61,595 nt of DNA. Origin: a virus. The notes beneath the pieces were generated by a model. The model saw only the letters and a list, made by a program, of their open reading frames with translations, did no database searches and had not been told where the DNA came from. The translations under genes and the position numbers were made by a program. The stretch is taken from positions 1 through 61,595 of IMG/VR virus record IMGVR_UViG_3300049749_000001; one strand, given 5' to 3'. Positions 1 to 32,791 of this stretch are shown piece by piece (position 1 is the first letter of the stretch; each line of letters opens with the position of its first letter).

Positions 1-127
1 GCGGCACACTTACCGTCGACGTGGAAGAGCTCTACAAGAAGGTAAGGAAACAGGCCGACGAACAGGCGCCTCCCGCGCCAACGGAAGAACCGAACCTGAA
101 AGCCGCAAGGGACTTGCTGGCAGAGCG
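1..127. repeat. Terminal direct repeat, identical to 61469-61595 (circular-closure overlap)
   Basis: The first 127 nt (gcggcacacttaccgtcgacgtggaagag...ctggcagagcg) recur exactly as the last 127 nt. The coding frame is continuous across the join. Confidence 0.95.
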
Positions 128-6100: not shown

Positions 6101-9100
6101 GGCGGCGATGGATATGCGCCTCGTGGATTTAGACGCCACGGAGCGCGACCCGGAAGGGCGCATCGCCATGGCCGGCAAGGAAGTCATCGAGCGGTACCAC
6201 AAGTACCACGATGTACTCGGCACGCAATTGATTTTCAGCGACATGGGTACCCCCCTGAAACACGCCCGGAAGGAAATGGTGGAGTACGAGGCGCTACGCG
6301 CCACCATTGCGGCGGGAGCGGACCCGGATACCATTGCGCGCGCGGAATTGGGCGACGAAGCGGCAATGACCAAGATCGAGGAAGCGGAGAAAGCCCAGGA
6401 GACACTGGACGGCAAGGGGCAGGACTGGCTTGATGCGATCAAGGCCGCGATTCGCGGCTTTTCCATCTATGACGATATGCGGGCGTACCTGATGGAGAAC
6501 GGCGTACCGGAAAAAGAGATTGCCTTTATCCATGACTACAACACGGACGACCAGAAGGCGGCACTGTTCGCCGCGGTCAACGCCGGCAAAATCCGCATCC
6601 TGCTAGGGTCCACTGCCAAGATGGGCGCCGGTACCAATGTTCAGCAACGTCTCGTGGCGATTCACCATATCGACGTGCCCTGGAAACCCTCTGATATCGA
6701 ACAGCGCGAGGGGCGCATCATCCGCCAGGGCAATCTCTTTGCTACGCCACCAACCGAGGACGCGCCTAATCCGCTCTACAACCCGGATTTCGAGGTAGAG
6801 ATACTGGCCTACGCTACCCAGGACTCGCTGGACCTGTTCATGTGGCAGGTACAGGAAAAGAAGCTCGGCATGATCAACCAGCTACGCGAGGGCAAGGTAG
6901 GGCGCGAATTCGACAATGCGTTCGAGGAAATGCAAATGTCGGCCGGCGAAATGCAAGCCGCGGCAACGTCCAACCCGTACCTGATGGAAGAGATTGTACT
7001 TAAAGACAAGATCAAGAAATTGGAACGGCAACAGAAAAGCCATGTGGCGCAGGGCAACGACCTTATCACGCGGGAGAAGAAGGCACGCAAGGCGATAGCC
7101 GAACTGCCAGCGACCATCAAGGCGATGGAGAAGGTAGACAGCGAGGCGCGGGCTTACCACGCGGCGATGGAAGCGCGGGAAGTGCCCGCTACCATCGACG
7201 GCAAGCAATACACCAAGCGAGCCGCAGCGACCGCGTACATACGCGACATACTGGACGATCATCAAGAGCGGTACGAGAGGCAGGAAGCCGACAATTCCAT
7301 AAGGAAGCTGCAAGCCACCATAGACAATGCCCTGAACAAGACTGACAACGAGCCAAAGCTGGACGAAACGCTTTCCAAGAGCAAGCTCGCAAAGCCTATC
7401 AAGATCGACGGCAAGGATTACGTCAGTATCAGCGCGATTTCAGACCGCATCCGCATGATCTACGGTGACGCGGACCCCATTGCGTTCGAGCGCGGGGACC
7501 AGACCCTCTACACCCGCAGCGCCATCCGAGACGCCATCCGCGACGACTACGCCCGGGCGGTGGAAGAAGAAACCACCGTGCCGATGGGATCGTTCGGCAA
7601 TTTCGAGGTTTCGGTACTCGTCAAGAAAGCGCGGGACAAGAAAATGGAAATCGAGATTTACGCGCCGGCGCAACTCTCGGACGGTACCGACCTGGGATCA
7701 TATTATGTGGGCGAGTACCACGACAAGGTAGCGGCGCTACCCGATATCGACAAGTGGATCCGGGCGGCAAGCACGCACGCGCACGGCGTCGAGTGGTCCC
7801 TGAACAACTCACGCCGGGAACTGGAACAAGCGCACAAGACGATCAACGACCTTGGCAGGATGCCGGAGCGGCAGGAGTGGGCGGGCAAGGAAGAACTGGC
7901 GCAAGCCCGCGAGCGGTACCGCGAAGTGCTCAAGCTGATTGTCGCCCTGGCCAACCCGGCGCCGACAGTCAAGCCGGATGGAAAATACCATGTGATGCGG
8001 AAAGCGGAAGCGGCGCAAGCGATGGGCGGACAGCCCACGGATGAAGCAAAGGCCGACCCGCGGTTCTACGTCTGGACAGAAGGCATGATCCTGGTAGACG
8101 GTTCCAAAGACGGTTTCCCGACAGAGTTTGATGCGGGCGTATGGCTGGCCAGAAAGCAGGGCAAGCCCATTGCGGTACCGAGCCATACGGAAGCACGCCA
8201 CGGGCAAGGCATAGCGGGCATTACCAAGCTGCAGGACCGAACGCGAGCGGAAGAGCCGGCATTTTCCCGCCAACCCAAAAAAGCCACCCCCCCAGGTGGC
8301 TTTTCTGCTTCTGCGCTACCGAAAACGCACACCCAGGCAATCGTTGACGCCATCCGCGGAAAGTGGAAGAACGCGCCGGAGGTTGTCATCGTTGATGACA
8401 TGAACGATCCGGCCATACCGGGAGCCGTGCGCAAGGAGAACGAGCGCCAGCTATCCCAGGGCGCCAAGGGCGAGCCGGAGGGCTTCATTGCGGGCGGCAA
8501 GGTCTATGTAGTCGCATCGCAAATGCGAGCGCCTGGGGACGTTGTACGCGTGCTGCTGCATGAAAGCCTCGGACATTTCGGGTTGCGCGGGCTCTACGGC
8601 GCAGGACTGGACAAGATACTCCGGCAGATTGCCGCATTGCGGCGGAAAGAGGTGGAAGCCAAGGCACGCCAGTACGGCCTGGACATGAAGGTGGAGAAGG
8701 ACAAGCTCAGGGCGGCGGAGGAAGTGCTGGCGGAAATGGCACAGACCAACCCGCAAAGCGGCTTTGTCCAGCGTGCAATAGCGGCGATTCGGACATGGTT
8801 GCGCGAGAACATCGAATACTTCAAGGATATGAAGCTATCCGATGGCGAAATCATCAACAACTACCTGATACCCGCGCGGGAGTTCGTGCAACGGGGCGCA
8901 CCGCAAGGCGGGCAGGCAAGCGGCGTTACCGCATTCCAGCGCGTTTGGCACGGTACCCCGCATATCTGGCCACCGGAACCAGGTTTCGCGCATGGACGGC
9001 CACGGCTGGACATGATCGGAAGTGGCGAGGGTGCGGCGGCGTTTGGATGGGGATTCTATACCGCCGAATCCAGGCGCATAGGCGAGGAATATCACCGGAT

Positions 9101-12100
9101 ACTGTCATCGCGTAACCCCGTGATACTGAGGGCTGGCCTGAATGCCATCGTTCCATCGAACGAAATAGAAGAATACGCATTAGGCAGATTGCTGAGAGAG
9201 CTCAGATACGCGCAAGACGACACGGCGATAAACAGGGCGATCAAGAGGGTAATCCTGGATGCACGCAGCTCACGCAAAAAGGGGATGAATGCACCGGGCA
9301 AGCTGGCGCTTGAAGATGGAATCGCATCCTATGTCGAAAAACTATGGGATCAGCGCCTTACCCTGCAACGCGAAGGCGGGGCGCTATACCACCTGGACAT
9401 TCCAGATTCCGCATTGCCGTACCTGCTTGATTGGGACAAGCCGCTAGGCGAACAGCCACCCAAGGTCAAGGCCGCACTGAACATAGTACGGGCACGCCTT
9501 GAAAGCGTGGACTTGCTCGAGGACTACCTGGACGCAAAAAACGCCGATTGGGAAGAACTGACAGGCGCGGAGCTGTACCTGCAAATCCTGGACCGGGCAG
9601 CAACGGATGACGCTCTGCCCTACGGAGTTCCGGGCATTGAAGAAGCATTAACCTATAACAAGACCAAAAAGGCTGTATCGCTCTATCTCACATCGTTGGG
9701 CATAGTCGGAAACCGCTACCTTGACGGCGTTTCACGCAAGAAGGGGGAGGGCAACTACAACTACGTGATATGGGATCAGGAAGTACTCGACAAGATAGCC
9801 CTCCTGGAGCGCAACGGTACCGCCCTCGATGCGATGCGCGAAGCGGAGGAAGCGTTTTCCCGCAATTCCCGAAACGGGACAGAACGGGAAACACAGACCG
9901 ATACGCCAGAGTTCAGGAAGTGGTTCAAAGGTAGCAAAGTAACGGACGAGAACGGGAAGCCGTTGCCTATGGTTCACGTTTCCCCAAAGGGGAATATCGA
10001 AGTGTTTAAGCCGGGATCAGATGGCGGCGTTTGGTTTAGCCCTCTGCATGACACGACAGAGGCCGATATTGTTGCCAGCTACGGCAACGACTTTATAGAA
10101 AACCCAAACCCGGATGAATACCCTGACGTGGCAGTGGGCGCGACCTACTACCCTGTTTATCTGAAAGCGAACAACCCGGCAACGGGCAAAGACGCTGACG
10201 ACTTTTATAACGGAAAAGTTTCGGCCAAGGCATTGCAGAAAAAAGGGTATGACGGCGTTACCTGGGATGACGGCGTTACCGTTGTATTCAAACCCGAACA
10301 AATCAAATCAGCCATAGGCAATAACGGCGCATTCGACGCTACCAACCCGGATATCAACTTTTCCCGTTCGACGCCCAACCCGAAAGTAGAGGCGGCTAAA
10401 TCCTGGCTGGACGGCGTTACCGATTCCCTCATCTACAACTTCGTTGACCGCTTCAAGCCCCTGCGCGATATCCAGAAACGCGCCGGCGCGGTACCCGAAC
10501 GGCAGGACGCATCGCTTGCAGAAGAGCGGTATTCAGGAATGGTGCGGGCTCGTACCGATGATTTTCACAACGACCTCCGGGATCCACTGTTAAAAGCGAT
10601 ACACGATGGGAAGCTGGACTACGATCAGGTAGAGGAATACTTGCACGCATTGCACGCGCCTTCCCGCAATGCCCACATGAAGTCAATCAACCCGACTGCA
10701 GAAGAACTGCAAGCCCGCCTCGATGCGCTATCGAAGGAGCGCGACGAGCTCACAAGGAACAGGGATGTGAAGCGGTACATCAAGCTGCGCCGGGAGCAGC
10801 GCCAAGCCCAGGCCGATATCGACGAGGTTATCGCGGATGAATCGCTAGGCCGGATGATTGCGCAGGAAATGACAAAATTGCGCAAGGTGCCCGCGGTTAA
10901 AAGCTACGTGGATGCTACCGAGAAGCTGCGAGCACTGCGCGACGTGAAGCCGTTCGATGGTGACAATACCGCACTCTCCGGCATGAGCAACGCGGAAGCG
11001 AAGGCAGTCATCGAAAAAGCACGCAAGGCGGGCAAAATTCGGGCACTGGAGAAGGTTTCTGCCATCGTTGATACCATCACAGCCCAAACCCGGCAAATCT
11101 ACGTAGAGGCCGGTTTAGAGAAGGCGGAGACTATCGAGGGGTGGGAATCCCTTTATGAGCATTACGTCCCCCTGCATCGGGATGAAGTGGGCGGAAACAC
11201 CAATCCCCCCATCGGCCAGGGCTACAGCATACGCGGGCGTGAAAGCAAACGCGCCACCGGATCCACGAAAGAGGTAACGGACATACTGGCTCACATCGTT
11301 GCATCGCACGAGGCGGCAATCGTGCGGGCGGAAAAGACGAAGGTGGACCTTGCCCTGTATCGCTTCGCCATGTCGCACCCGGACCCGGATGTATGGACCC
11401 TGGACGCGGCACCCAAACTCAGGATGGTGGATCCGACCTCCGGCGTGGTTGCCGAACGCATCGACCCCCTCTATAAGAACCGGGCAAACGTCCTAACGCT
11501 GAAAATCGGCGGGGAAGAGCACACAATCACTTTCACCGAGAGCAACCCGGAAGCCATGCGGCTCGCCGTATCGCTTAAGAACCTGGGAATGCAGGAGCTC
11601 GGGCAAGTAACGCAGGTAATCGGAAAAGTAACCCGGTTTCTCGCAACCATGTCCACCTCTGCAAACCCGGTTTTCGTTGCCCGCAACTTCCTGCGCGACA
11701 TTCAAACCTCGTTCGTGAACCTGTCCGATACCGAACTGGCCGGGATGAAAAAGCAGGTTTTTGCCGATTTGCCATCCGCGATTAAAGGCATGTGGAACAT
11801 GTCACGCGGGGATCGTAAATCGAAGTGGGCAAAGTACGCGCATCAATTCCGCGCCGCCGGCGGGCAAACCGGATGGATGGAGCACTACGGCAGTATTGGC
11901 GAACGTGCCGATGGGTTGCGCAAGCAGCTTGCAGCGATGGACCCGACCAAGATCAACTTGGCCAAGCAGACCGCGCGCGCGTGGTGGGAGCTCATCGAGG
12001 ACGCGAACGGCGCCGTCGAAAATGGCGTGCGGCTTGCCGCTTTCGTCAACGCACGCAAGGCCGGTCTATCGGAAGGCAAGGCGGCGGCACTGGCGAAGAA

Positions 12101-18017: not shown

Positions 18018-18205
18018 GCCGCCTCCTTTTTTGTCAGTCCGCGTTTTCGGCCTGCCGCCTTCGCTTCCTCGGAAGTGAACTGGTGCGCGGTCCCTTGCGC
18101 GTGCGCCGCCTTGCCGCCACTGCTGGCGATTGCCCGCTGCTTGTCCTTGTCCATTGATGCAAAGCCCTGCTTACCTTTCATTGTTTTTCCCCTTAACAAC
18201 TTCAT
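18014..18205 (-). CDS. KGG-repeat general-stress-protein-like protein (YciG-like, 63 aa)
   Basis: GFASMDKDKQRAIASSGGKAAHAQGTAHQFTSEEAKAAGRKRG matches the stress-induced KGG motif pattern. Confidence 0.65.
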   Translation of the reverse strand: MKLLRGKTMKGKQGFASMDKDKQRAIASSGGKAAHAQGTAHQFTSEEAKAAGRKRGLTKKEAA

Positions 18206-19437
18206 GCGCGTTTCCTCAAATCCATTTCTTCCATATCGGCCAGCATCGCTGCTGCTCGTGGCAAATCCGCAATCTTCGCTTCTGTGAGCATGAGCAAATC
18301 GTCCTCATCCTGGGCGGGCACCTCGAAGTGACTGGTCAATATGGTCCGGTGGAACTTGGGCGCGGTCACGATGCAATGGTGACTGCCCCAATCGAATTCG
18401 CGGATCCCGCGAATGTGCTCTTTAACTGATATGGTTTTCCCGTCCCGTACGCGTTCATGTGCCCGTACGTAATGAATGATCTTCTTGGCTTTTCCATCCG
18501 CTGCTTTGATGCTCTTATCGCGGTCCGCGAAATAGGTTTTGGTGTTTTCAGGGTCCACTGAGAAAACCACCCGGTTCTTACCCTTGCGGATGCCCACGCT
18601 CCAGCGAAGGTCGCGCTCGTTCCACCATGCGAGCATTTGCACGAACGAATGCGCAATAGACTGACGCCGCTCTTCCAGCGTTGACACTTCTTGGCTTTTG
18701 GTAATGTATGGCTCACGCCATCTGGTTTGCATGAATGAGCGTGTTGCCGCCCCTTCGCCCTTGCGGTTGCGCTTTACCGGAATGGTCACGCGCTCTCCGC
18801 GCAGCTCGTCGCACACCTTTATCTCTCCCGTTGCCGGGTCTATCACGAGAAAACACTGAATCCAGAAGTTGCTCGCACTGGAAAAATTGTACGAGTAACC
18901 AAACTCGTAGACGATTCCGGGCAATTGCGTGTAGAGAGGTGGCACCTTCGCGTGCTTGACCGCGAACATCGTATTCGGAAAAACCAGATCGTCATCGTTC
19001 GGGTGCGTGCAATTGTCCGGTGACACACTAAAACTGATAGCCATCATGGCGGGCATAGGGCCGGCAGGGTCGGCGTATATCCCTGCCGTATGCACGACTA
19101 ACTCCCGTTTCCAGGGCTTGTCAGGGACATAGACGCCAAGGCGCTTTAACCCGATTACCGTTCCCTTGGGTAGCCATGAGAGCTTGTCCGTTGGCAGTTT
19201 CATTGCTTCAAATGTCACATCCAGGTTGTCTAGCAGGTCCGCCAGATTCTTCCGTATCAGTGCCCTGCCCTTGCGGTCCCTCGTCTGCTTTCGCTTTGTA
19301 TTCGCCTGGGGCGTCTCAAAGGGTTCGCGGTCAAACGTGAATTCCTCCATTGCTGGATCCGGGTCCGCTTGCCTGGGTGAGAAAAAATGGGTAATGCTTT
19401 TCATGATGCGGTCAATAAAGCTCTGCAGGAAGGCCAA
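18202..19437 (-). CDS. Hypothetical protein (411 aa), the largest unknown in the accessory arm
   Basis: Long closed ORF, translationally coupled to the downstream genes. No motif recognised. Confidence 0.7.
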   Translation of the reverse strand: MAFLQSFIDRIMKSITHFFSPRQADPDPAMEEFTFDREPFETPQANTKRKQTRDRKGRALIRKNLADLLDNLDVTFEAMKLPTDKLSWLPKGTVIGLKRLGVYVPDKPWKRELVVHTAGIYADPAGPMPAMMAISFSVSPDNCTHPNDDDLVFPNTMFAVKHAKVPPLYTQLPGIVYEFGYSYNFSSASNFWIQCFLVIDPATGEIKVCDELRGERVTIPVKRNRKGEGAATRSFMQTRWREPYITKSQEVSTLEERRQSIAHSFVQMLAWWNERDLRWSVGIRKGKNRVVFSVDPENTKTYFADRDKSIKAADGKAKKIIHYVRAHERVRDGKTISVKEHIRGIREFDWGSHHCIVTAPKFHRTILTSHFEVPAQDEDDLLMLTEAKIADLPRAAAMLADMEEMDLRKRA

Positions 19438-19513
19438 GGGTTTTCTCCGATTAGTACACTCATTGAAAAATTCTCCTGGCCGGTTGGCTTGTTGTTGTGT
19501 GTAAAGACGTGAC

Positions 19514-20074
19514 TCATAACCTAAAGAACTTATGTCGGATGCTGGCCACTACAGACCGGGCTTCATCCTCCAGACCGATCGTGCCGGCACGTACGATGAA
19601 TGCCGGTCCTTCGTCTCCAATGTTGAACAGTTCAAGTACCCTGCCCTTGCTATTGAGCAAGTTGAGTGCCGCCTGTACGGTTTCATCCGACGGTTTGCCG
19701 AACGGGTGGCTGTAATCCCCATCACGCGCCGCCTGAAAATTGGCGTGATCAATAACTTCCCGCTCAGTTAGGCAGGAACCGATGGAAGTAGCCTTGCCAT
19801 CAAAACCGACGATGGTGTAGTAGAAAGCCTCGGGTAGCCGTCTTTCCCATCCTTGCGGTACATCCTCTAGCGATTTCATCTTGTCGAGCTCCTTGAGTGC
19901 TTCTGCCTCGCTCGTGTAGCAATAGCGCCGCCCGTAGCCTGTCATGTCGAGCTCGGTACAGATTCCCCAGGTGTAGATGAAGCGGAAGATTCCCGCCCAT
20001 CCATCGGGAAACTTGCGTACATGGATGTATTCGCCTGTCTCTTCCAGATACGCCTTGTATTCGTCGTCAGTCAT
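19514..20074 (-). CDS. Hypothetical protein (186 aa)
   Basis: Closed ORF starting just below oriV. No motif recognised. Confidence 0.6.
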   Translation of the reverse strand: MTDDEYKAYLEETGEYIHVRKFPDGWAGIFRFIYTWGICTELDMTGYGRRYCYTSEAEALKELDKMKSLEDVPQGWERRLPEAFYYTIVGFDGKATSIGSCLTEREVIDHANFQAARDGDYSHPFGKPSDETVQAALNLLNSKGRVLELFNIGDEGPAFIVRAGTIGLEDEARSVVASIRHKFFRL

Positions 20075-20115
20075 TAATCTTCCATTGGTTTAAAAACGGG
20101 AGTCATAAATCAATA

Positions 20116-20159
20116 CCAGTTAATGCGGTTAACTACACCAGTTAACCCGGTTAACTACC
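20116..20159. repeat. Two tandem 22-bp units, each an AGTTAA-N5-TTAACT palindrome
   Basis: CCAGTTAATGCGGTTAACTACA followed by CCAGTTAACCCGGTTAACTACC, directly after iteron 1. Confidence 0.8.
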
Positions 20160-20173
20160 CTGTAAAAGTCGAG

Positions 20174-20253
20174 TTATCCACAGGCTGCATTAAGAATCTT
20201 TAATAAAAGGTTAAAGACTTTAGGTTAGAAAACGGTTAGCGGGTTGTGGATAA
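20174..20253. promoter_or_regulatory. Pair of inverted consensus DnaA boxes
   Basis: TTATCCACA at 20174-82 and TGTGGATAA at 20245-53, flanking an AT-rich stretch. Confidence 0.8.
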
Positions 20254-20461
20254 CCATGTATTCATTAATAAATTCAGCTACTTGCTGACATGCCTCCGGG
20301 AGTCATAAATCAATAGTCCGGGAGTCATAAATCAATACTTTCGGGAGTCATAAATCAATAGTCCGGGAGTCATAAATCAATAGTGCAAGATTCTGAAAAC
20401 AGCAGATTCATATCGGTTTCACATTAAAATAAGGTGCAAAACGGGAGTCATAAATCAATAG

Positions 20462-21409
20462 TTAGCAGACCGGCGTTTCAGCTCCTTTTCGGCGGACCAT
20501 GACTAATCCCTGTCTGCTTACCTCAAAATCTTCCAGGAAACCGGAATCCTTCAAGGCTTGCAATGCCTTGTTAATCAGTTTCTTTGCATCGCGCAGCCGT
20601 TCCTTGTGTTTGGCTGTGCGTGCCGTCTCGTCCAGTTCCGCATCCTGGGGCGCCTCGATCATCAATCCCGCGCCACTAGCCAACGTTTCGATGCGCACAG
20701 GGTAAGGTTCGCGGTGTGATGCGTAGTAGGCGTGCAACCACGTTGCCATTCCTTCAGGAAGTGAAAGCCGGCGTTGCCATTCAACCCGGGTGTATTGGAA
20801 TTCCGAGAACAGGAACACGAGCTCGTCGTGCATCCGCACTGTCCATAGACCGCCATCGCCATCCTTGCGGCGCTTGGCGTGGTAGCCTGGAAGCATGGAC
20901 AGGGATAAATCCTCGTTCAGACGTTTACTGGCTATCTTCAAAGACGTGGCCTGTAGCCGTGTCATGCACTTGTCCAGGCGGTCATAGCTCTGTCCAGTGA
21001 CAGGCCACTCGATAGCCTTGCAAAAACTGAAAGGGGTAAAGTGAAACGGCGTGGCTAGTCCGTTTTCGCGGGCAAGGTGGATAAGTTGCAGCCATACGGT
21101 TTCATCATCCTGGCGGAGTTCTTCGCCGGTGTAGGTTATCTCGCCCTCCCCTATTACAGCGACAACGGCGCGTTTCAGGTCCGCCCGCGGCTGCTTTCGA
21201 TTCTTGACGGTGAACAATGCAGAACGAACAATCTCATTCGGGATCCCGCGCAGTCCTTCCGCCCAAAGGGTCAATTGCTTGTTGGATAGAAGCTCTGCCC
21301 GTTTGCCGTCCCGTGCCGTTTTCTTTACGCGTTCGCCAATTTCGCGGATGGAATCGGCGCTAGATTTCTTCGCGGGTTTGCCGCTGTCCTCTTCTGCTTT
21401 TTCAAGCAT
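20462..21409 (-). CDS. trfA: TrfA-family plasmid replication initiator
   Basis: The blocks GIPNEIVRSALFTVKNRKQPR, ITYTGEELRQDDETVWLQLIHLA, RLQATSL and SHREPYPVRIETL parallel the RK2 TrfA blocks as I recall them. The adjacent iterons support the call. Confidence 0.85.
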   Translation of the reverse strand: MLEKAEEDSGKPAKKSSADSIREIGERVKKTARDGKRAELLSNKQLTLWAEGLRGIPNEIVRSALFTVKNRKQPRADLKRAVVAVIGEGEITYTGEELRQDDETVWLQLIHLARENGLATPFHFTPFSFCKAIEWPVTGQSYDRLDKCMTRLQATSLKIASKRLNEDLSLSMLPGYHAKRRKDGDGGLWTVRMHDELVFLFSEFQYTRVEWQRRLSLPEGMATWLHAYYASHREPYPVRIETLASGAGLMIEAPQDAELDETARTAKHKERLRDAKKLINKALQALKDSGFLEDFEVSRQGLVMVRRKGAETPVC

Positions 21410-21573
21410 CGTTATTCCCCTGGTTGTCGTATCCTTTTCGTATTAATACCTATGCAATACATACGAAAGTAATATCTTTTTAGTATGAATATGGTGCCCC
21501 TTGACTCAACCCCGCCCGTGCAAGGTGTAAACCGGGCAGAGTAAATTCTTATCTTGCCAAGGGGCGTAACTCT

Positions 21574-21933
21574 TTAGCTGGCCATTTCCTTTAGTTTCTT
21601 GATTGCCTGTTGCGCGGTCTCTTCCGCCTGATCGAACGAGGTGCGAACGAGGTCCACCACGCCGACGTGCATTTCTTCCGCTTGCATGTAAGTAGAACAG
21701 CGCAGTTGCACCTGCCCGAACGACTCGCAGAACGTCATCGTCTCGAAAAGCAGGGGCGGACCGTGCTCGGTCCAGTTATGGTCCAGCGCAAGAAACACGG
21801 TGCTCACCATTACGCCCTCGATATCCTCCTGGGCAACGATCCTGTTGTCCCGCCCGAACGAATCCGCCCATTGCTCCATGTCGCACGGCACCGGCGTACG
21901 TCCTTCCAGTCGGTAATACTTGCTATAGCTCAT
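21574..21933 (-). CDS. Hypothetical protein (119 aa)
   Basis: Closed ORF with a 4-nt overlap with the upstream gene. Confidence 0.6.
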   Translation of the reverse strand: MSYSKYYRLEGRTPVPCDMEQWADSFGRDNRIVAQEDIEGVMVSTVFLALDHNWTEHGPPLLFETMTFCESFGQVQLRCSTYMQAEEMHVGVVDLVRTSFDQAEETAQQAIKKLKEMAS

Positions 21934-22265
21934 TCATCCCCTACCTTTCCTCCCGTTCTGTTAATCAATTCCAACAGTTTCCAGCCGTCGCATTTTTCAA
22001 GGGGCGCCGACATTTCAAACAAGGCCACGCCACGCAGGGCAATGGTCATGACAAGCTCGCCGTGGCGCATCTGGTTAGTACTCAGAATGGCGAACCGCGC
22101 CTCGGGCGCATCTTCAAGCATGGTCAAGACGTGATCCATGCGCCGGAGCATCCGCCGTTCCTGCGTGGCTTCGCTGAGTTCCAGCCGTTGCCGTGGCGGT
22201 TTCTCCGGGGTCAAGGGAACACAGCCTCCTGCGGTGTAACCCGCGTCCATTGCTCCTCCGCCCAT
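21930..22265 (-). CDS. Hypothetical protein (up to 111 aa; start uncertain)
   Basis: Closed ORF. Its 5' end overlaps the 3' end of 22211..22396, so an internal Met start is possible. Confidence 0.5.
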   Translation of the reverse strand: MGGGAMDAGYTAGGCVPLTPEKPPRQRLELSEATQERRMLRRMDHVLTMLEDAPEARFAILSTNQMRHGELVMTIALRGVALFEMSAPLEKCDGWKLLELINRTGGKVGDE

Positions 22266-22396
22266 CGCAATTCCGGCGCCCAGGCTGAGAGCTCGGGCAC
22301 TTCCGCCATTTCGCCATAGGTCAAATGTCCGTAGCGTTCAAGCAGCTCCTTCGGTATCACGGGTTCGATTGATTGATAAATTTCTGCATGTGTCAT
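22211..22396 (-). CDS. Hypothetical protein (61 aa)
   Basis: ORF 22211..22498. Start moved to ATG 22396 (MTHAEIYQS), preceded by AAGGAGG. Confidence 0.5.
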   Translation of the reverse strand: MTHAEIYQSIEPVIPKELLERYGHLTYGEMAEVPELSAWAPELRWAEEQWTRVTPQEAVFP

Positions 22397-22406
22397 CCTG
22401 GCCTCC

Positions 22407-22670
22407 TTAGTCTTTTTCAATCCAGTGCTCCAGGGCTCGGTAGATTGCAAGGTTGATGAGACTGGCGCGGGTGTTGCCAGTTTTCCTCGCCATCGCATCG
22501 AGTTGGTCTAAAATCTCCGGGGAGATGGTATGGCTGATCTGTATCCTGTTCCCTTTCATGAAGGCTTTCTTCGGCTTTGAATCCGGTGCGCCTTCCTCAA
22601 ATTCCGTTACTTTCGTCGGTACAACGTCAGGTATTTTCGGGTCCAGCTTGGGTCGCGGTGTAATAGCCAT
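22407..22670 (-). CDS. Ribbon-helix-helix partition/regulatory protein (ParG/CopG-like)
   Basis: KGNRIQISHTISPEILDQLDAMARKTGNTRASLINLAIYRALEHW is an RHH fold signature. It lies immediately downstream of parA. Confidence 0.7.
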   Translation of the reverse strand: MAITPRPKLDPKIPDVVPTKVTEFEEGAPDSKPKKAFMKGNRIQISHTISPEILDQLDAMARKTGNTRASLINLAIYRALEHWIEKD

Positions 22671-22686
22671 ATCGTATCAATCTCCA

Positions 22687-23373
22687 TTAAGACGATACTA
22701 AATTCATATCGGATGGATATGAAAGCAATACGGCAAGCAACTTACTGAATTCCGCCCTTGCCTTCGGGTCCGCCTTCTTCATTTCCAGCACAGACAACCC
22801 CTGGCCAGCAGCACTCGAAAACGCCTTGCGCCGCACGAGGGGCGTATCAATGTATTCAAACTGCGGAAATGCGCTCAGTTCTGCAATGGCTTGCTCGTTA
22901 TCGGCTGCGCGAACGTCCTCGCTTGGATCCGGGTCGGCGGTATTCAGGACTGACAGCACGGGGAAATGTTCGCGTGCGCCGCGTGCCTCGTCCACCAATT
23001 CGGCCATTTCCTCCATTGCCCACACTTCAAACGTACGCGGCACGAACGGCATGAGCACCTTGTCCGATAGCATCAATGCCACGCGAAAGGCGGATGAATC
23101 CCGCCCGCCCGCGTCGATGATCACATCATGGAACTTGTGCGCCTGCAGCTTCACCTGGGAGCGAAGCAACGGACCTTCCGTGTACGTGGCGCACGCGATA
23201 CCGGGGAGGGTTTCGTCCTGGGCTCTCACGGCGATTGCCATCTGCGAGGTTTTCTGCCGGTCCGCATTGATCAGCCATACGTCGCGCCCTTCGCGGGCAA
23301 GTGCCGATGCAATGCTGACAGCGAGCGTGCTCTTGCCTACGCCGCCTTTGGTATTCCCTACGGTGAGTATCAT
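22687..23373 (-). CDS. parA: ParA-family partition ATPase (small, type Ib-like)
   Basis: Deviant Walker A in ILTVGNTKGGVGKSTLAVSIA. 228 aa with no N-terminal HTH. Confidence 0.9.
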   Translation of the reverse strand: MILTVGNTKGGVGKSTLAVSIASALAREGRDVWLINADRQKTSQMAIAVRAQDETLPGIACATYTEGPLLRSQVKLQAHKFHDVIIDAGGRDSSAFRVALMLSDKVLMPFVPRTFEVWAMEEMAELVDEARGAREHFPVLSVLNTADPDPSEDVRAADNEQAIAELSAFPQFEYIDTPLVRRKAFSSAAGQGLSVLEMKKADPKARAEFSKLLAVLLSYPSDMNLVSS

Positions 23374-23459
23374 TTTCCTGGCCTCTCGTTTTCATAGTTA
23401 TGGGGTAGTTATCGTACATTGCGATACTATGAAATGGCAACGAAAAACATAGGCAGACG

Positions 23460-23807
23460 TTAATGGATATTAGGCCGCTTGAAACGGTCAACAAACTCCA
23501 GGGCTTCCTTAATCGCACTGCAAGCCTCATGTTTGGAGTAATCCGGGACACAAAGCCTTAGAAGCTGGTCAACCTGACGGAGTAGGGTGCCGAACGTGTT
23601 CACCACGCCGTACAGTTGCGCCATGTTCGAGGTCAGGTCCGCGACGGATCCGGGCATGGTTTGGATCGTCTCGGTAGGCATACCGCGAAACGCGTTCCAG
23701 CACAAAACCAGCCGGTCCGCGTCCTCGTCCGATATCTCGCTAATGTTGGCCACAATCTTTCCGTCGCCATCCTGGATCTGTATTGCTGCCACTTTCGGTT
23801 TGCCCAT
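23460..23807 (-). CDS. Hypothetical protein (115 aa)
   Basis: Closed ORF. No motif recognised. Confidence 0.55.
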   Translation of the reverse strand: MGKPKVAAIQIQDGDGKIVANISEISDEDADRLVLCWNAFRGMPTETIQTMPGSVADLTSNMAQLYGVVNTFGTLLRQVDQLLRLCVPDYSKHEACSAIKEALEFVDRFKRPNIH

Positions 23808-23808
23808 G

Positions 23809-24237
23809 CTATGCAGTCTCCCTCTGTCGTTTGGCTTTGCATCTGCCGATGGATGAATCCTCGCCGCATCGTGGGCGTGCCAGTGCGAGCTTTAGCAGTT
23901 CTTCGGATGCCTCGAAACGCCGGATGAGAGTAGATTCCGACACCGCAATGGCCTCGGCTATCTCTCGGTTCGTGGCGTTGGCCTCAAGCATTTGCCGGAT
24001 GGTTGCAAAATGCTTGTCCAGGTGATTTTGCGCACCGACCCGGCGTTTTTCGGCGGACACTTCGTGTCCTTTCTTTGCCGCGCCTTTCAGCCTGACTTTG
24101 TGATCGTTGTAGCGGACGATATGGCAGACACCCATCAACAGCACGATGGTCGGGTAGCTTGGCAAGCAGTCGAGCTCGTCATCGAACGGGCGCCGGATCT
24201 GCTTCGTGTAGTCCTGCTCGTGGAATGGATTAATCAA
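23809..24237 (-). CDS. HTH DNA-binding protein (start uncertain)
   Basis: The C-terminal half has ATNREIAEAIAVSESTLIRRF, a resolvase/sigma-r4-like HTH. I chose the TTG at 24237 because it overlaps the upstream stop (TTGA). The ORF maximum is 24360. Confidence 0.5.
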   Translation of the reverse strand: MINPFHEQDYTKQIRRPFDDELDCLPSYPTIVLLMGVCHIVRYNDHKVRLKGAAKKGHEVSAEKRRVGAQNHLDKHFATIRQMLEANATNREIAEAIAVSESTLIRRFEASEELLKLALARPRCGEDSSIGRCKAKRQRETA

Positions 24238-24461
24238 CGTTGCGCCATGAGACGGCGATAGGCCGGAGGGGTGGTATAAATACACCGGAGCACGCTCGCG
24301 CCATCGCTCTCGACGTGCCCGGACCCGATGAGTTCCTGCTGGTAGCGCGGGGGAGGGCATTGGGGCGCCTGGGCTTCATCAATATCGCGGTACCCCATCC
24401 AGCCGAGGACCGCCACGATGGATAGGGTACCTATTGCGGGATATACGATTTCCTTGATCAT
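24234..24461 (-). CDS. Small membrane-anchored protein (75 aa)
   Basis: N-terminal helix IVYPAIGTLSIVAVLGWMGY. It is the first gene after the recET terminator. Confidence 0.5.
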   Translation of the reverse strand: MIKEIVYPAIGTLSIVAVLGWMGYRDIDEAQAPQCPPPRYQQELIGSGHVESDGASVLRCIYTTPPAYRRLMAQR

Positions 24462-24481
24462 GGATCCTCCTTGTAGAAACG

Positions 24482-24510
24482 AAAAAACGGCAAGCTGACT
24501 GCGCTTGCCG
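24482..24510 (-). terminator. Rho-independent terminator after the exonuclease gene
   Basis: Minus-strand reading CGGCAAGC-N7-GCTTGCCG followed by TTTTTT. Confidence 0.8.
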
Positions 24511-28055: not shown

Positions 28056-28505
28056 TCAAAGGTGAGCGGGACGTTCTTCTTCATCTTTCCGTCGCTCAGG
28101 GTTTTTCCGTTTGTCTTCAGAGGGATGAATGGGCTCAGTTCGCATACGTCGTCGTCGTTGCCTGTTATCCGTGCTCTCATCGAGAGACGAATTCTTTTTT
28201 TTAGATGCCATCTGGCAGAAGGCCAGGACGAGCCTTTGTTCTTCTTCGGAGAGCCTCGATACGAGCTCCATGATTTGATGAACCAGCGAGTGAGTATCGC
28301 TCGGCATATCAAGATACATAGGAGGAAGGCCAGCCCTAAGTTCTATCAAACGCGCCTTCTTCTCTCCAAAGGACTTGTTTCTTAGCAGTCCCGATAACTC
28401 GCTAGGGCTGATGCCTGTCCGTTGCACGAAAGAAACAAGCAGCCCATCAAAGCTCGTATCAATTAAGTGCCGAAGTCTCTTACGGCGTGTGGCTACGATA
28501 TCCAT
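28056..28505 (-). CDS. CI-like phage repressor (HTH, no S24 peptidase domain)
   Basis: RLRHLIDTSFDGLLVSFVQRTGISPSELSGLLRNK is a CI/XRE-type HTH. It is divergent from the cro-like gene across an operator-bearing spacer. Confidence 0.65.
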   Translation of the reverse strand: MDIVATRRKRLRHLIDTSFDGLLVSFVQRTGISPSELSGLLRNKSFGEKKARLIELRAGLPPMYLDMPSDTHSLVHQIMELVSRLSEEEQRLVLAFCQMASKKKNSSLDESTDNRQRRRRMRTEPIHPSEDKRKNPERRKDEEERPAHL

Positions 28506-28557: not shown

Positions 28558-28570
28558 TTGTTCGGTTATT

Positions 28571-28584
28571 TTACTAAAAAGTAA
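28571..28584. promoter_or_regulatory. Perfect 14-bp palindromic operator TTACTAAAAAGTAA
   Basis: It shares the TTAC(T/C)-N4-AGTAA half-sites with the operators inside PR (28611-24) and PL (27531-44). Confidence 0.6.
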
Positions 28585-28598
28585 AGCACCAATGAGTA

Positions 28599-28627
28599 TT
28601 GACTCTAAATTTACCAAAAAGTAACAT
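28599..28627 (+). promoter_or_regulatory. PR-like early promoter with embedded operator
   Basis: TTGACT (28599-604), a 17-nt spacer containing TTACCAAAAAGTAA, and TAACAT (28622-27). The ORF-track TTG start at 28599 is this -35 element. Confidence 0.65.
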
Positions 28628-28658
28628 CCGGTACTTAAAAAAAGCCTCGGTGGCAGTC

Positions 28659-28952
28659 ATGAAGCAGCTACACGAACTGCGGTCACTCAAGAATGCGGGG
28701 ATACGCGTGGCGAATCAGGCCATGCTCCGGTACCTCAACAGCTTGCCGCCACGGGAGCGGGACGTCCTGGCCAAGCAGCTTAAGACCAGTCAAAGCTACT
28801 TGCGCAAGGCGGCGTCGCGGGGTGAGGTATTGCGCGAGGAGATATGTTCTGAATTAGAACGAATCAGCCGCCGAAAAGTTACGCGTCAAATGTTGCGCCC
28901 GTACGATTGGGAAACAATATGGCCTGAATTGCGTCAGGCCAAAGCCGCATAA
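28659..28952 (+). CDS. Cro/YdaS-like HTH regulator
   Basis: LAKQLKTSQSYLRKAAS...RKVTRQMLRPYDWETIWPEL resembles the YdaS/Cro family C-terminus. I prefer the ATG at 28659; a GTG at 28650 is also possible. Confidence 0.6.
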   Translation: MKQLHELRSLKNAGIRVANQAMLRYLNSLPPRERDVLAKQLKTSQSYLRKAASRGEVLREEICSELERISRRKVTRQMLRPYDWETIWPELRQAKAA

Positions 28953-28995: not shown

Positions 28996-30060
28996 ATGGT
29001 TGGACCTATCGAAACATATCCCCTCAATCACTGCTACGCAGGTGATAGCCGCGTCACGCTCAAGCTCCTTGAGCCTTGCAGCGTGCAAGTTTGTGTCACG
29101 TCACCCCCCTATTACGGGTTGCGTTCGTATCTTCATGATACTCATCCTTATAAAAACCTTGAAATCGGTGGGGAAAAGACGCCGGATGAGTACGTCGCGG
29201 CGCTGGTCGAGGTTTTCCGGGAGGTTTGGCGCGTGTTGCGGGACGATGGCACGCTCTGGCTGAACCTGGGAGATAGTTACGCCGGCACAGGCAAGAGCGG
29301 CGGGGGAGCTCAGGGCAGGCGATGGGAAGAGTGCGGGATGGATACTACCGGAGCTCGAGGAGGCAAATGGATGCCGCCACCAGCAGGGCTCAAGCCGAAA
29401 GACTTGATCGGTATCCCCTGGCGCGTGGCATTTGCACTACAGGCGGATGGCTGGTACCTGCGGCAAGACATAATCTGGCACAAGCCCAATCCCATGCCGG
29501 AGAGTGTCACAGACCGATGCACCAAGGCACACGAGTACCTGTTCCTGTTGAGCAAATCCCCCAGGTACTACTTCGATAACGAGACGATAAAAGAAGCGTG
29601 CGCCCTGCAGGAATACAAGACGCCGGATGGATGGGATACCAGCAAGGGGGAGGGCGGGCACGGCCCATTTCACAAGAATGGCCGCGAGAAAGGCAAAACC
29701 GACAAGCAACGCGGGCATGGCCGCATCTATACCGGGTTTAACGAGCGATACGACGCCAAAGAAGCGGCGCAGCAGTTAACCGGCACTCGCAACAAACGGA
29801 GTGTTTGGACGATCCCAACGCGCCCGTATGCACAAGCCCACTTCGCAACATACCCCCCTGAACTCATCGAACCCTGCATTTTGGCCGGCACTCGCCCAGG
29901 CCAGATCGTACTTGACCCCTTTTTTGGATCCGGCACCACTGGCGAAGTAGCGCAACGCCTGGGGCGCCGGTGGATTGGCTGTGAACTTAACCCTGAGTAT
30001 GCCCTTTTACAAAATGAACGGACCCGCCAAGACGGGTTTGCCTTGGAGACGATGGAATGA
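28996..30060 (+). CDS. Stand-alone DNA methyltransferase (N4/N6 class, beta order)
   Basis: Motif IV VCVTSPPYYGLRSY comes before motif I LDPFFGSGTTGEVAQRLGRRWIGCELNPEY. Confidence 0.85.
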   Translation: MVGPIETYPLNHCYAGDSRVTLKLLEPCSVQVCVTSPPYYGLRSYLHDTHPYKNLEIGGEKTPDEYVAALVEVFREVWRVLRDDGTLWLNLGDSYAGTGKSGGGAQGRRWEECGMDTTGARGGKWMPPPAGLKPKDLIGIPWRVAFALQADGWYLRQDIIWHKPNPMPESVTDRCTKAHEYLFLLSKSPRYYFDNETIKEACALQEYKTPDGWDTSKGEGGHGPFHKNGREKGKTDKQRGHGRIYTGFNERYDAKEAAQQLTGTRNKRSVWTIPTRPYAQAHFATYPPELIEPCILAGTRPGQIVLDPFFGSGTTGEVAQRLGRRWIGCELNPEYALLQNERTRQDGFALETME

Positions 30061-30890
30061 ACTACTACGCGCACCACCTGGGCGATTATGCGGAAGCAAC
30101 CGCCCATCTGAGCTTTCTTGAAGATGCGGCATATAGCCGTCTCATCCGCAAATACTATGCGACAGAAAAGCCGTTCCCATGTGACGTCAAGACCGTACAG
30201 CGACTCGTGGGTGCGCGGACGAAAGAGGAGCGGGAAGCGGTGGCAACTGTGCTTGCCGAGTTCTTTGTTCTTTACCAGGGGTCGTTTCACAACACCCGAT
30301 GCGACAGAGAGATTGCTGCTTACCGCGACAAGCAATCCAAGGCGAAACGTAGTGCGGATAGCCGATGGAGTGCAACCAAAACGCCAAGCGAAGGCAATGC
30401 GAACGCAGTGCCAACGCAATGCGAAGGCAATGCTAACCAAGAGCCAATAGCCAATAGCCAAGAACCAGAACCAAAGACGGAGGTTATACACACAGAGTTA
30501 GATACTCCCCGCGACGAGAGCGATCAACCGGAAGGCGCGTGTTTACCTCCAGACCCGGTTAAAACGACAGAAGCAGGGCTTTGCTGCAAGGCAATAATGA
30601 ATCAGGGCGTGCAAGGCGGAAACCCAACCCATCCGACCCTGATTGCCTTGATCGAAGCCGGCGCCACTGAAACCGAGTTTGCCAATGCCGCAAGGGATGC
30701 CGTGACACGGGGACACCACAGTTTTGCGTACGTTGTCGGGATCGTGAAGCGGCGGCGTGAAGAAGCGGCAAAGATGGTGCTGCACCAGGGGCGATTGCCG
30801 AACAAGCAAGAGGCGCTTGAAGAGGCGAACAGGCGAGTAGCGGCCGCGTGGATGCCGATAGAAATGAGGGAGGCGAGAAATGCAGTCTAA
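30057..30890 (+). CDS. DUF1376/YdaU-like replication-module protein
   Basis: MNYYAHHLGDYAEATAHLSFLEDAAYSRLIRKYY is the characteristic N-terminus. There is an ATGA overlap with the MTase gene. Confidence 0.6.
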   Translation: MNYYAHHLGDYAEATAHLSFLEDAAYSRLIRKYYATEKPFPCDVKTVQRLVGARTKEEREAVATVLAEFFVLYQGSFHNTRCDREIAAYRDKQSKAKRSADSRWSATKTPSEGNANAVPTQCEGNANQEPIANSQEPEPKTEVIHTELDTPRDESDQPEGACLPPDPVKTTEAGLCCKAIMNQGVQGGNPTHPTLIALIEAGATETEFANAARDAVTRGHHSFAYVVGIVKRRREEAAKMVLHQGRLPNKQEALEEANRRVAAAWMPIEMREARNAV

Positions 30891-31527
30891 CGATTTCGAG
30901 GCATTCCGCGAAGGGCTTGCGGGTGTGCTGTCCTTCTACGATAAAGCGGTATCCGCCTTTGTTCTCGACGCATGGTGGGCGGCTATGAAGCGATACGAGC
31001 TCGCTGAGGTCGTGGATGCCTTCAACCGGCACCTTGCAAACCCGGACAAAGGGCACTTTACGCCAAGGCCCGCCGACATTACTGCAATGTTGCAGGGTTC
31101 CTCACAAGACGGCGCCTTGCGAGCCTGGGCAAAGGTTGACCGGGCTTTGCGCGAGAAGGGTCCGTATCGGGACGTGGTATTCGATGATCCCCTGATTCAT
31201 CGCGTGCTTACCGACATGGGCGGATGGGTAGCCCTCAGCAAGAAAGGCGATGACGAATGGCCGTTCGTGGCCAAGGAATTCGAGAATCGGTACCGGGGTT
31301 TCAGCGTGCGCAGCGAAACGCCGGAATACCCGCGCAAGTTGATCGGCCTGATCACGGCGGAGAACGGAAAAAAAGGATTCAAGGGTGATGAGCCCGTGCT
31401 CATTGGGGATCCGCAAAAGGCAATGCGGGTGATGAGCGGCGGTTCGGACAGGCCGGCGCTGCAGTTCCGGCAATTCAACGAATCGGATATGCCGGTTCCT
31501 GCGCCACAACTGAGGCAGGTTGGATGA
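30880..31527 (+). CDS. Hypothetical replication-module protein (215 aa)
   Basis: Closed ORF coupled to its flanking genes. No firm motif. Confidence 0.55.
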   Translation: MQSNDFEAFREGLAGVLSFYDKAVSAFVLDAWWAAMKRYELAEVVDAFNRHLANPDKGHFTPRPADITAMLQGSSQDGALRAWAKVDRALREKGPYRDVVFDDPLIHRVLTDMGGWVALSKKGDDEWPFVAKEFENRYRGFSVRSETPEYPRKLIGLITAENGKKGFKGDEPVLIGDPQKAMRVMSGGSDRPALQFRQFNESDMPVPAPQLRQVG

Positions 31528-32512: not shown

Positions 32513-32791
32513 GTGAGCCCTGCGCAACGGCACAAGAGCGTTGTTGCCCGCCTGGGATGCGTGATCTGCCGTGCGTTCTATGGCAAGCGGACCCCTCCCC
32601 AGGTGCACCATATCGCGGAAGGCTCCGGCCTGCGCAGTCCGTACATGACGGCGGGGCTCTGCCTTGAGCATCACCAGGGAGCGAGCGGGTTTCATACGTT
32701 GAAGGAGGAATTTCTGATTCAGTACAAATTGCCAACCGAGTATCACTTGCTGCTGCTGGTTAACCGTTTCCGCGCGGAAGATCGAATATGA
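32513..32791 (+). CDS. Ref/HNH-like (RecA-dependent nuclease family) small protein
   Basis: LGCVICRAFYGKRTPPQVHHI...GLCLEHHQGASGFH has the Cys pair plus HH...HH pattern of Ref-like HNH proteins. Confidence 0.45.
   Translation: MSPAQRHKSVVARLGCVICRAFYGKRTPPQVHHIAEGSGLRSPYMTAGLCLEHHQGASGFHTLKEEFLIQYKLPTEYHLLLLVNRFRAEDRI

Follow-up and report, generated by a model that had tools for sequence, protein, structure and literature searches.

The stretch of DNA analysed here, hereafter the window, comprises the 61,595 nt of the metagenomic IMG/VR record IMGVR_UViG_3300049749_000001, a phage genome in which a plasmid-type initiator gene, trfA, and an adjoining origin of replication (oriV) lie between positions 20097 and 21409. 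The gene (20462-21409, minus strand) encodes a protein of 315 amino acids (aa) that matches the Pfam family TrfA (PF07042) with an E-value of 8.6e-42 and 143.6 bits (cut-off 22), over profile positions 24-238 of 282. In a BLASTP comparison, the protein shares 36% identity over 209 aa (E 9e-41) with the TrfA of the IncP-1 plasmid pNB8c, and both matches bear out the initial annotation, in which the gene was assigned to this family of initiators. Since the alignment begins only at residue 160 of the 407-aa IncP-1 protein, the product is taken to correspond to the short TrfA-33 form, which is devoid of the long N-terminal extension. Residues 45-49 read QLTLW, and the pattern QLxLW is invariant in 18 members of the subfamily. 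This pattern resembles the β-clamp-binding motif of RK2 TrfA, QLSLF (PMC4980987), and is out of register with the IncP-1 QLSLF in the BLASTP alignment. Among solved structures, none was detectably related to the window TrfA by sequence.

The intergenic region downstream of trfA (20075-20461, 387 bp) has an A+T content of 63%, compared with 43% for the whole window, and no more than about seven places in the window have a 114-bp stretch of comparable A+T-richness. It harbours six exact copies of a 19-bp iteron, CGGGAGTCATAAATCAATA when read on the plus strand, which start at 20097, 20297, 20319, 20342, 20364, and 20442. None of 100 shuffled versions of the window contained a match, even when up to three mismatches were allowed, and at the same tolerance no further copy was found in the window outside the origin.

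Followed along the strand of trfA (minus), the origin begins with iteron a (20442-20460), which reads TATTGATTTATGACTCCCG in this direction and ends one base before the trfA stop codon. A spacer of 59 bp (20383-20441, 66% A+T) leads from there to an array of four identical iterons, b-e (20297-20382), whose starts are 22, 23, and 22 bp apart, a period of about two helical turns. Beyond the array lies a first DnaA box, a perfect match to TTATCCACA (20245-20253, minus), followed by a candidate DNA-unwinding element of 62 bp (20183-20244, 65% A+T) in which TAACC occurs three times on the trfA strand, at distances of 11 and 14 bp. A second perfect TTATCCACA box (20174-20182, plus), inverted relative to the first, closes the element; elsewhere in the 61.6-kb window, there is only one other perfect DnaA box, at 52082. 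The outlying sixth copy, iteron f (20097-20115, minus), is likewise exact, lies 22 bp ahead of the next gene's start codon, and has four extra flanking bases in common with iteron a. The six iterons of one orientation, the pair of inverted DnaA boxes, and the A+T-rich stretch reported in the initial annotation are thus all present, the iterons and boxes without a single mismatch. A small hairpin followed by a T-run (20274-20288, minus), detected in a consensus scan between the array and the first DnaA box, may perhaps terminate trfA transcription; the number of such sites in the window is not above the shuffled expectation.

Comparison with Plasmid Origins

In a large protein collection, the closest relatives of the window TrfA are 70-80% identical to it, and the contigs that encode them are small plasmids with genes for a MobA relaxase, a type IV secretion system (T4SS) coupling protein, a resolvase, and ParE. 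These betaproteobacterial TrfA plasmids comprise FPBZ01000024 of Nitrosospira multiformis, JBKCGU010000152 from a Polaromonas metagenome-assembled genome (MAG), and the metagenomic mobilisable plasmids L009 and L014-L018. They resemble the window in the sequence of TrfA, in the layout of the origin, in the gene order parA, small gene, trfA, and often in the presence of a resolvase and of ParE. In contrast to the window, they possess relaxase and coupling-protein genes and a G+C-rich tract flanking the origin, and they carry neither its phage genes nor the 22-bp GTTAAC repeats described below.

A common plan of the origin emerged from five relatives (L009, L011, L014, L015, and L119) with 70-80% identical TrfA proteins. 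On the trfA strand, an iteron at or just after the stop codon, as with iteron a, is followed by a spacer of 60-100 bp, three to five iterons with a period of 22-23 bp, a DnaA box with at most two mismatches, about 60 bp of A+T-rich DNA with TAACC every 10-15 bp, and an inverted DnaA box. L009, L011, and L014 have a perfect or near-perfect box (at most two mismatches) at the position of the array-proximal DnaA box of the window, as well as the TAACC-repeat stretch between the boxes. The second box is conserved in the relatives as TGTGGATAA or TGTGCATAA, and in L011 an iteron lies directly beyond it. The iteron core varies among the relatives (TTGATYTWTGACTCCCG and variants) while the plan remains constant, as would be expected of a working, co-evolving pair of initiator and origin; in the Polaromonas MAG contig, the iteron is even identical to that of the window, TATTGATTTATGACTCCCG. 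Judged by these features, the oriV of the window is a genuine TrfA-type origin.

The initial annotation went further and described a textbook origin of the RK2 style. The parts on which this description was based (TrfA, iterons, DnaA boxes, and an A+T-rich element) are indeed those of RK2/RP4, the IncP-1 plasmids. In both, TrfA belongs to PF07042, the iterons recur at 22-23 bp, an A+T-rich element with TAACC repeats every 11-14 bp lies beside the array, and the origin is located downstream of trfA on the same strand. In the origin of the IncP-1 plasmid pNB8c, two inverted DnaA boxes precede five iterons with a period of 22-23 bp, and an A+T-rich stretch with TAACC every 12-14 bp comes last. 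The order of the boxes, by contrast, did not hold up. In RK2, DnaA boxes are followed by the iterons and then by an unwinding element with four 13-mers (PMC4980987); according to the literature, there are four boxes ahead of the iterons, and their position and orientation matter for function. No RK2-like cluster of DnaA boxes precedes the iterons of the window, where the boxes flank the A+T-rich element after the iterons. Further differences from RK2/RP4 are an array of four iterons instead of five, the iteron itself (TTGATTTATGACTCCCG versus TGACACTTGAGGGGC), the lack of a TrfA-44 long form, two foreign iterons in place of the G+C-rich flank, which make the origin a hybrid, and the residence of the replicon in a phage. 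The ssb and kor context of IncP-1 backbones is missing as well, with no match to either family in any open reading frame (ORF) scanned. Given this absence, the single 315-aa product, and the 36% identity, the replicon classifies as a member of the TrfA family but not of IncP-1.

Taken together with the maintenance genes described below, these features are best explained if 20097-21409 is a complete theta-type iteron replicon that was captured by a temperate phage from a betaproteobacterial plasmid and keeps the prophage as a low-copy plasmid, an explanation that we regard as probable.

Cassette Exchange in a Sister Phage

The 17.2-kb IMG/VR contig IMGVR_UViG_3300049276_000003 (L019) represents a sister phage. 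Its nucleotide identity to the window amounts to 96.9% over window positions 36072-30424, 98.3% over 30068-21412, and 91.6% over 20075-19508, so that the rep locus is flanked on both sides by 92-98% identical DNA. Over 21412-20075, i.e., from the start codon of trfA to that of the next gene, the two are unrelated. Instead of trfA and its oriV, the sister phage has, at 14572-15635 of its contig, an ORF of 218 aa with a Pfam HTH_36 domain and a weak DnaD_N match, five copies of the 22-bp iteron GTAGTTAACCRCGTTAACTGGT (one at the stop codon and four in tandem), and two adjacent perfect-core DnaA boxes (TGTGGATAAA) with a further DnaA-box-like site. Between the two phages, the 164-bp promoter and leader of trfA (21410-21573, minus) shows about 97% identity, which extends as far as the start codon. 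On the other side, a gene of 186 aa (orf186, 19514-20074, minus), the first downstream of oriV and matched only by an unannotated PHROG, forms the conserved right boundary. As delimited by this alignment, the rep locus is an exchangeable cassette of initiator and origin whose boundaries fall at two start codons.

A protein search returned 104 homologues of the 218-aa Rep, which occurs in phage-like contigs in the three contexts examined. In L110 and L113, it is followed by a non-coding region of 300-400 bp, parA, a small gene, and a resolvase gene, and in L107 it lies beside DUF1376, DUF6475, YqaJ, and RecT genes. In each of these contexts, the non-coding region after the HTH_36 Rep contains a 22-bp-type repeat and DnaA boxes. 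L107, whose Rep is more divergent, has the repeat AGTAAAC...TTTACT in place of AGTTAAC...TTAACT. Because the repeat both follows the HTH_36 Rep and covaries with it, it can be regarded as the iteron of a second initiator family.

The window itself contains two tandem copies of this foreign iteron, GTAGTTAACCGSRTTAACTGGT on the trfA strand (20115-20158, minus), which match those of L019 at 21 of 22 bases and which were missed in the initial annotation. They are the only copies in the window and sit between the second DnaA box and iteron f. The 22-bp repeat was absent from all TrfA plasmids scanned, and the window holds no homologue of the 218-aa Rep (best tblastn E-value 0.5). The origin is thus a hybrid, presumably the scar of a recombination between the two cassette types. 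A single replacement was rejected as its source, as it does not explain the TrfA iteron beyond the orphan copies. One possible path is recombination at the DnaA boxes through microhomology, a box preceding the junction in both phages. Searches of IMG/VR with the 218-aa Rep, the 22-bp repeat, and a 411-aa ORF downstream of oriV returned only the sister contig, plus single-copy matches to the repeat in six contigs.

The scar invites the question of whether the replicon still works. It could be a recent passenger or relic that no longer fires, in a phage kept by an unrecognised integrase or propagated only lytically. The two inserted foreign iterons and the loss of the G+C-rich flank seen in the plasmid relatives speak for such decay, and large ORFs without a family match exist, e.g., 18202-19437. 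Yet the trfA frame is intact, the six iterons are base-identical, both DnaA boxes are perfect, and contigs from two further samples encode a TrfA with 100% identity. Moreover, this site is occupied in the sister phage by another replicon that is no less complete, and this implies selection for a working replicon there. A relic is therefore quite unlikely, and a functional, captured plasmid replicon remains the preferred explanation.

The rep locus might be a hot spot for cassette exchange, and the orphan iterons might titrate or handcuff the initiators of sister phages, resulting in superinfection exclusion based on incompatibility. This proposal is tentative, and we consider it rather doubtful. 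Should it prove correct, a resident prophage of the TrfA type would exclude or destabilise an incoming relative of the HTH_36 type, and cassette exchange would let co-circulating sister phage-plasmids escape their mutual incompatibility.

Plasmid-Type Genes and the Circular Phage Genome

Along the minus strand from 13.3 to 24.4 kb, trfA is accompanied by other genes typical of plasmids. Upstream of it lies parA (22687-23373, minus), whose 228-aa product matches NCBIfam ParA_partition (E 2.5e-36, below the cut-off of the model) and the Pfam families AAA_31, CbiA, and MipZ; the ParA of the sister phage shows 100% identity to it. The neighbouring gene (22407-22670, minus) encodes an 87-aa ribbon-helix-helix (RHH) protein with matches to Pfam RHH_5 and RHH_1, both below the cut-offs, which is likely to be the centromere-binding partner of ParA in a type Ib, ParG-like system. 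A small serine recombinase of the resolvase/invertase group (15669-16301, minus; 210 aa) matches Pfam Resolvase (E 2.6e-34), HTH_7, and a PHROG annotated as 'DNA invertase', and likely provides multimer resolution. Finally, a ParE toxin gene (13808-14128, minus; Pfam ParE_toxin, E 3.5e-10) is overlapped at its upstream side by a gene of 85 aa (14115-14372, minus). All of these had been named in the initial annotation, and the Pfam, NCBIfam, and PHROG matches agree with it, save that the ParD antitoxin, which has no family match, is to be called putative.

The 22-bp GTTAAC repeats were also considered as a centromere of ParA and the RHH protein or as a phage operator common to both sister phages. 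This was rejected, as they follow every HTH_36 Rep homologue examined. A centromere is further contradicted by their presence in elements with unrelated ParA proteins and their covariation with Rep (GTAAAC/TTTAC in L107), and by their absence from the TrfA plasmid L018, whose ParA and small RHH protein are 58% and 50% identical, respectively, to those of the window.

The plasmid-type genes are set in a complete phage. The 127 bases at the two ends of the window (1-127 and 61469-61595) are identical, a direct repeat that escaped the initial annotation. Assemblers typically leave such a repeat when they close a circle, and the contig accordingly closes to 61,468 bp. No host DNA and no tRNA genes were found in this unit. 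It encodes the full phage complement for virion, packaging, and lysis, with a large terminase, portal, major head protein, tail fibres, internal virion protein, adaptor, and lysozyme, in addition to a RecT/exonuclease pair, a DNA methylase, a Ref-like nuclease, and a pair of divergent, immunity-like genes near 28.5 kb. The portal is closest to that of Achromobacter phage CF418P1 (39% identity), with more distant matches in 933W-like Stx phages and in phages of Ralstonia, Burkholderia, Pseudomonas, and Vibrio.

The claim that an integrase is missing was also upheld. No tyrosine or large serine integrase was detected in essentially all non-nested ORFs of at least 110 aa by Pfam (many were also compared with PHROGs), and tblastn with the integrase of CF418P1 was negative; the scans returned only the 210-aa resolvase/invertase. 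CF418P1, the nearest isolated phage, has its integrase in the corresponding leftward block. The combination of a replicon, ParA/RHH, a resolvase, and ParDE with no detected integrase strongly indicates that the prophage is maintained as a plasmid, most likely of low copy number.

Several observations count against this conclusion. Virion DNA of an integrating or purely lytic phage would give rise just as well to a circular contig that lacks host flanks, and an integrase without a family match may exist, a candidate being the 411-aa ORF at 18202-19437 (minus) downstream of oriV, which has no relative in Pfam, PHROG, or IMG/VR. No centromere repeat array was found in 21400-24500, where an inverted repeat upstream of parA was all that was seen. 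As for the origin, the arrangement of the DnaA boxes is unlike both pNB8c and the RK2 order, the G+C-rich tract that follows it in the plasmid relatives is missing, and the foreign iterons that separate iteron f from the second DnaA box could impair its function. The trfA promoter, moreover, is not specific to trfA, being common to the window and the unrelated rep gene of the sister phage.

As the sequence stems from metagenomic data and tandem iterons tend to break assemblies (the contigs L007 and L018 end inside or just after them), the joining of plasmid and phage genes could also be an assembly chimera, or the window a plasmid with an inserted prophage. However, the methylase, DUF1376, RecT, and exonuclease genes are linked to parA and the rep locus in two independent contigs as well, L007 (Logan) and L019 (IMG/VR), in which this locus continues on its other side into orf186. 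The plasmid-type genes are interspersed over 10 kb of the leftward block rather than forming one insert, the window contains no conjugation or mobilisation genes, and the iteron array of 86 bp is shorter than the 127-bp assembly overlap. An artefact or composite of this kind is highly improbable, and the window is best regarded as a true phage genome with a plasmid replicon.

A Second Replication Module

Besides trfA, the window contains the separate module of lambda style at 30-31.5 kb that had been noted initially. A DUF1376 protein (30057-30890, plus), which matches PHROG families annotated as 'primosomal protein', is followed by a DUF6475 protein (30880-31527, plus). Inside the DUF1376 gene lie about six 11-bp tandem repeats (AAC/GGCAATGCG; 30380-30445) and, after a CCAATA-rich stretch, the DnaA-box-like sequence TTATACACA (30484-30492). 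The only other non-homologous patch between the window and the sister phage, 30069-30423, coincides with the N-terminal part of this gene and the start of the repeats. The sister phage has different repeats of about 21 bp there (at about 5640-5720 of its contig), followed by the same conserved stretch, and the flanks of the patch are 97-98% identical. By analogy, the DUF1376 gene looks like lambda O with ori, in which the origin lies inside the initiator gene and the specificity domain and repeats change together. This pattern supports the idea of a separate lytic replicon, and the DUF1376/DUF6475 module probably drives lytic replication.

The module bears on a further explanation, in which TrfA and oriV form the vegetative origin, alone or together with DUF1376, and play no part in lysogeny. 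The position of trfA in a leftward block of early type, next to the RecT and exonuclease genes, fits this possibility, and some phage-plasmids use one initiator in both states, the RepA of N15 being an example. Against it stands the company that the replicon keeps: parA and the RHH gene, a resolvase, and parDE make sense only for a stably inherited low-copy plasmid. In addition, the relatives of TrfA at 45-80% identity whose neighbours were read or whose flanks were screened had plasmid-type neighbours and no phage genes of the window. The presence of a separate lambda-like initiator with internal repeats is a third objection. A fourth is that iteron replicons limit their own copy number, which makes them ill-suited to a lytic burst. 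A purely vegetative role is thus unlikely, and maintenance of the prophage as a low-copy plasmid is the more probable role of the TrfA replicon.

Proposed Mechanism of Maintenance

On the RK2 model, TrfA monomers would occupy the phased array of four iterons as well as the two outlying copies, and host DnaA would bind the two inverted boxes that bracket the 62-bp A+T-rich TAACC element. The element would then melt, and the helicase and polymerase of the host would be loaded, possibly with the invariant QLxLW of TrfA as the β-clamp-binding site. The origin would be expected to fire in this manner in the lysogen. Copy number would be kept low through iteron-mediated pairing (handcuffing) rather than autorepression, given that the trfA promoter contains no iteron-like site and in the sister phage serves an unrelated rep gene. 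Partition by ParA and the RHH protein, dimer resolution by the resolvase, and post-segregational killing by ParDE would complete the maintenance set. With the DUF1376 module reserved for lytic growth, the phage would reproduce the two-replicon arrangement of P1 from different parts.

Provenance, Host, and Distribution

A search for TrfA homologues gave hits in 629 plasmid records but not in any of the 50,697 GenBank phage records. Likewise, blastn with 19500-22000 gave no match among GenBank phages, and among plasmids only matches of about 70% identity shorter than 210 bp (at most 8% of the query), all within trfA. In a species-representative genome collection, the subfamily was almost entirely betaproteobacterial. 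The closest genomic proteins were those of the Polaromonas MAG (78%), Ca. Accumulibacter (72%), and Ideonella (68%), followed at about 47-52% by Comamonas, Nitrosomonadales, and Methylophilaceae; no phage protein of the window was matched in the 6-kb flanks of these genomic trfA genes. The composition of the subfamily, combined with the identical iteron in Polaromonas, makes a betaproteobacterial host likely.

A scan of JGI metagenome contigs for the exact iteron returned only two single, unrelated chance matches. In IMG/VR, six contigs encode distant TrfA-like proteins with 32-38% identity, which suggests that TrfA-like initiators in phage-like elements are not unique to the window; no description of such an initiator in a phage-like element was found in the literature. 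Three of these contigs (L003, L005, and L006; 24-116 kb, 35-38% identity) may be other, larger phage-plasmids with TrfA. Some of the genes lie near those for DnaB, an ATP-dependent ligase, and CobT, and one is located beside a tail fibre gene of 1,940 aa. In L005 and L006, a weakly similar ParA gene lies just upstream of the TrfA-like gene.

Two assemblies break inside or right after the iterons, one carrying this replicon (L007) and one a related replicon (L018). TrfA-type origins are therefore likely to be under-represented in contigs assembled from short reads.

Comparison with P1 and Significance

The best-known plasmid prophage, P1, combines RepA and oriR, with iterons and DnaA boxes, with ParAB-parS, Cre-lox, Phd-Doc, and a separate lytic replicon. 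The window is alike in logic, with an iteron-binding initiator, DnaA boxes, partition, site-specific resolution, a toxin-antitoxin pair, and a distinct second replicon. The components differ. RepA of P1 is Rep_3-like and belongs to a family unrelated to TrfA, partition is of type Ia in P1 and probably of type Ib in the window, and P1 is a myovirus, whereas the window represents a short-tailed phage with a portal like those of 933W and CF418P1, known from its sequence alone.

Phage-plasmids, a widespread class, shuttle genes between phages and plasmids; those that have been studied well (P1, N15, SSU5, and relatives) come mostly from enterobacteria and have other families of initiators. Iteron replicons, partition systems, and swappable replicases were thus already known from such elements; in P1-like elements, for instance, two unrelated replicases occupy one position, IncY versus p0111 (PMC7969092). 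What is new is the occurrence in a phage of a TrfA-family replicon, which none of the deposited phage genomes searched contains. The window thereby adds an environmental, probably betaproteobacterial, short-tailed phage with the replicon type of broad-host-range plasmids. Equally new are the precise cassette boundaries defined by a near-identical sister, which provide direct evidence that the maintenance replicon is a swappable cassette, and the natural hybrid origin, which retains the iterons of a displaced replicon as orphans. A third novelty lies in the conserved plan, apparent from the compared origins, by which the unwinding element is enclosed between DnaA boxes in a large, unstudied betaproteobacterial subfamily of TrfA. 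As the position of the boxes is critical in RK2, this subfamily offers a useful comparison. In practical terms, vectors for Polaromonas- or Nitrosomonadales-like bacteria could be built on the 1.5-kb unit as a candidate minimal replicon.

Further Features of the Element

The largest gene of the phage crosses the circular junction. In a single frame on the plus strand (57073-61595 continuing 1-13238), it encodes a polyvalent protein of 5,877 aa with Eco57I/MTS methyltransferase, ResIII/SNF2/Helicase_C, ART-PolyVal, and LPD38 domains. The ORF list holds only 4,405 aa of it, the window being cut within the gene. At the matching position, CF418P1 has an ORF of 2,684 aa. A Ref-like RecA-dependent nuclease of 92 aa (32513-32791, plus), assigned by a family match, is a further point of likeness to P1, which also has Ref.

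Among the contigs with an HTH_36 Rep, L107 (Logan SRR13588867, 47.7 kb) carries phage-type genes together with the type IV secretion genes VirB4 and TrbC and may be a mosaic of phage, plasmid, and conjugative element.

In the immunity region of the window, the repeat TTTACYAAAAAGTAA occurs twice (28570-28584 and 28610-28624) in the neighbourhood of the divergent genes 28056-28505 (minus) and 28599-28952 (plus), the latter with a weak YdaS/Cro-like match, and the two copies are probably operators of the immunity switch. An inverted repeat, TTTCGTAT-N17-ATACGAAA (21436-21468), was also found in the trfA leader. It resembles the one upstream of parA, TTTCATAGT...ACTATGAAA (23395-23440), and, speculatively, both may be operators of one regulator, e.g., the RHH protein.

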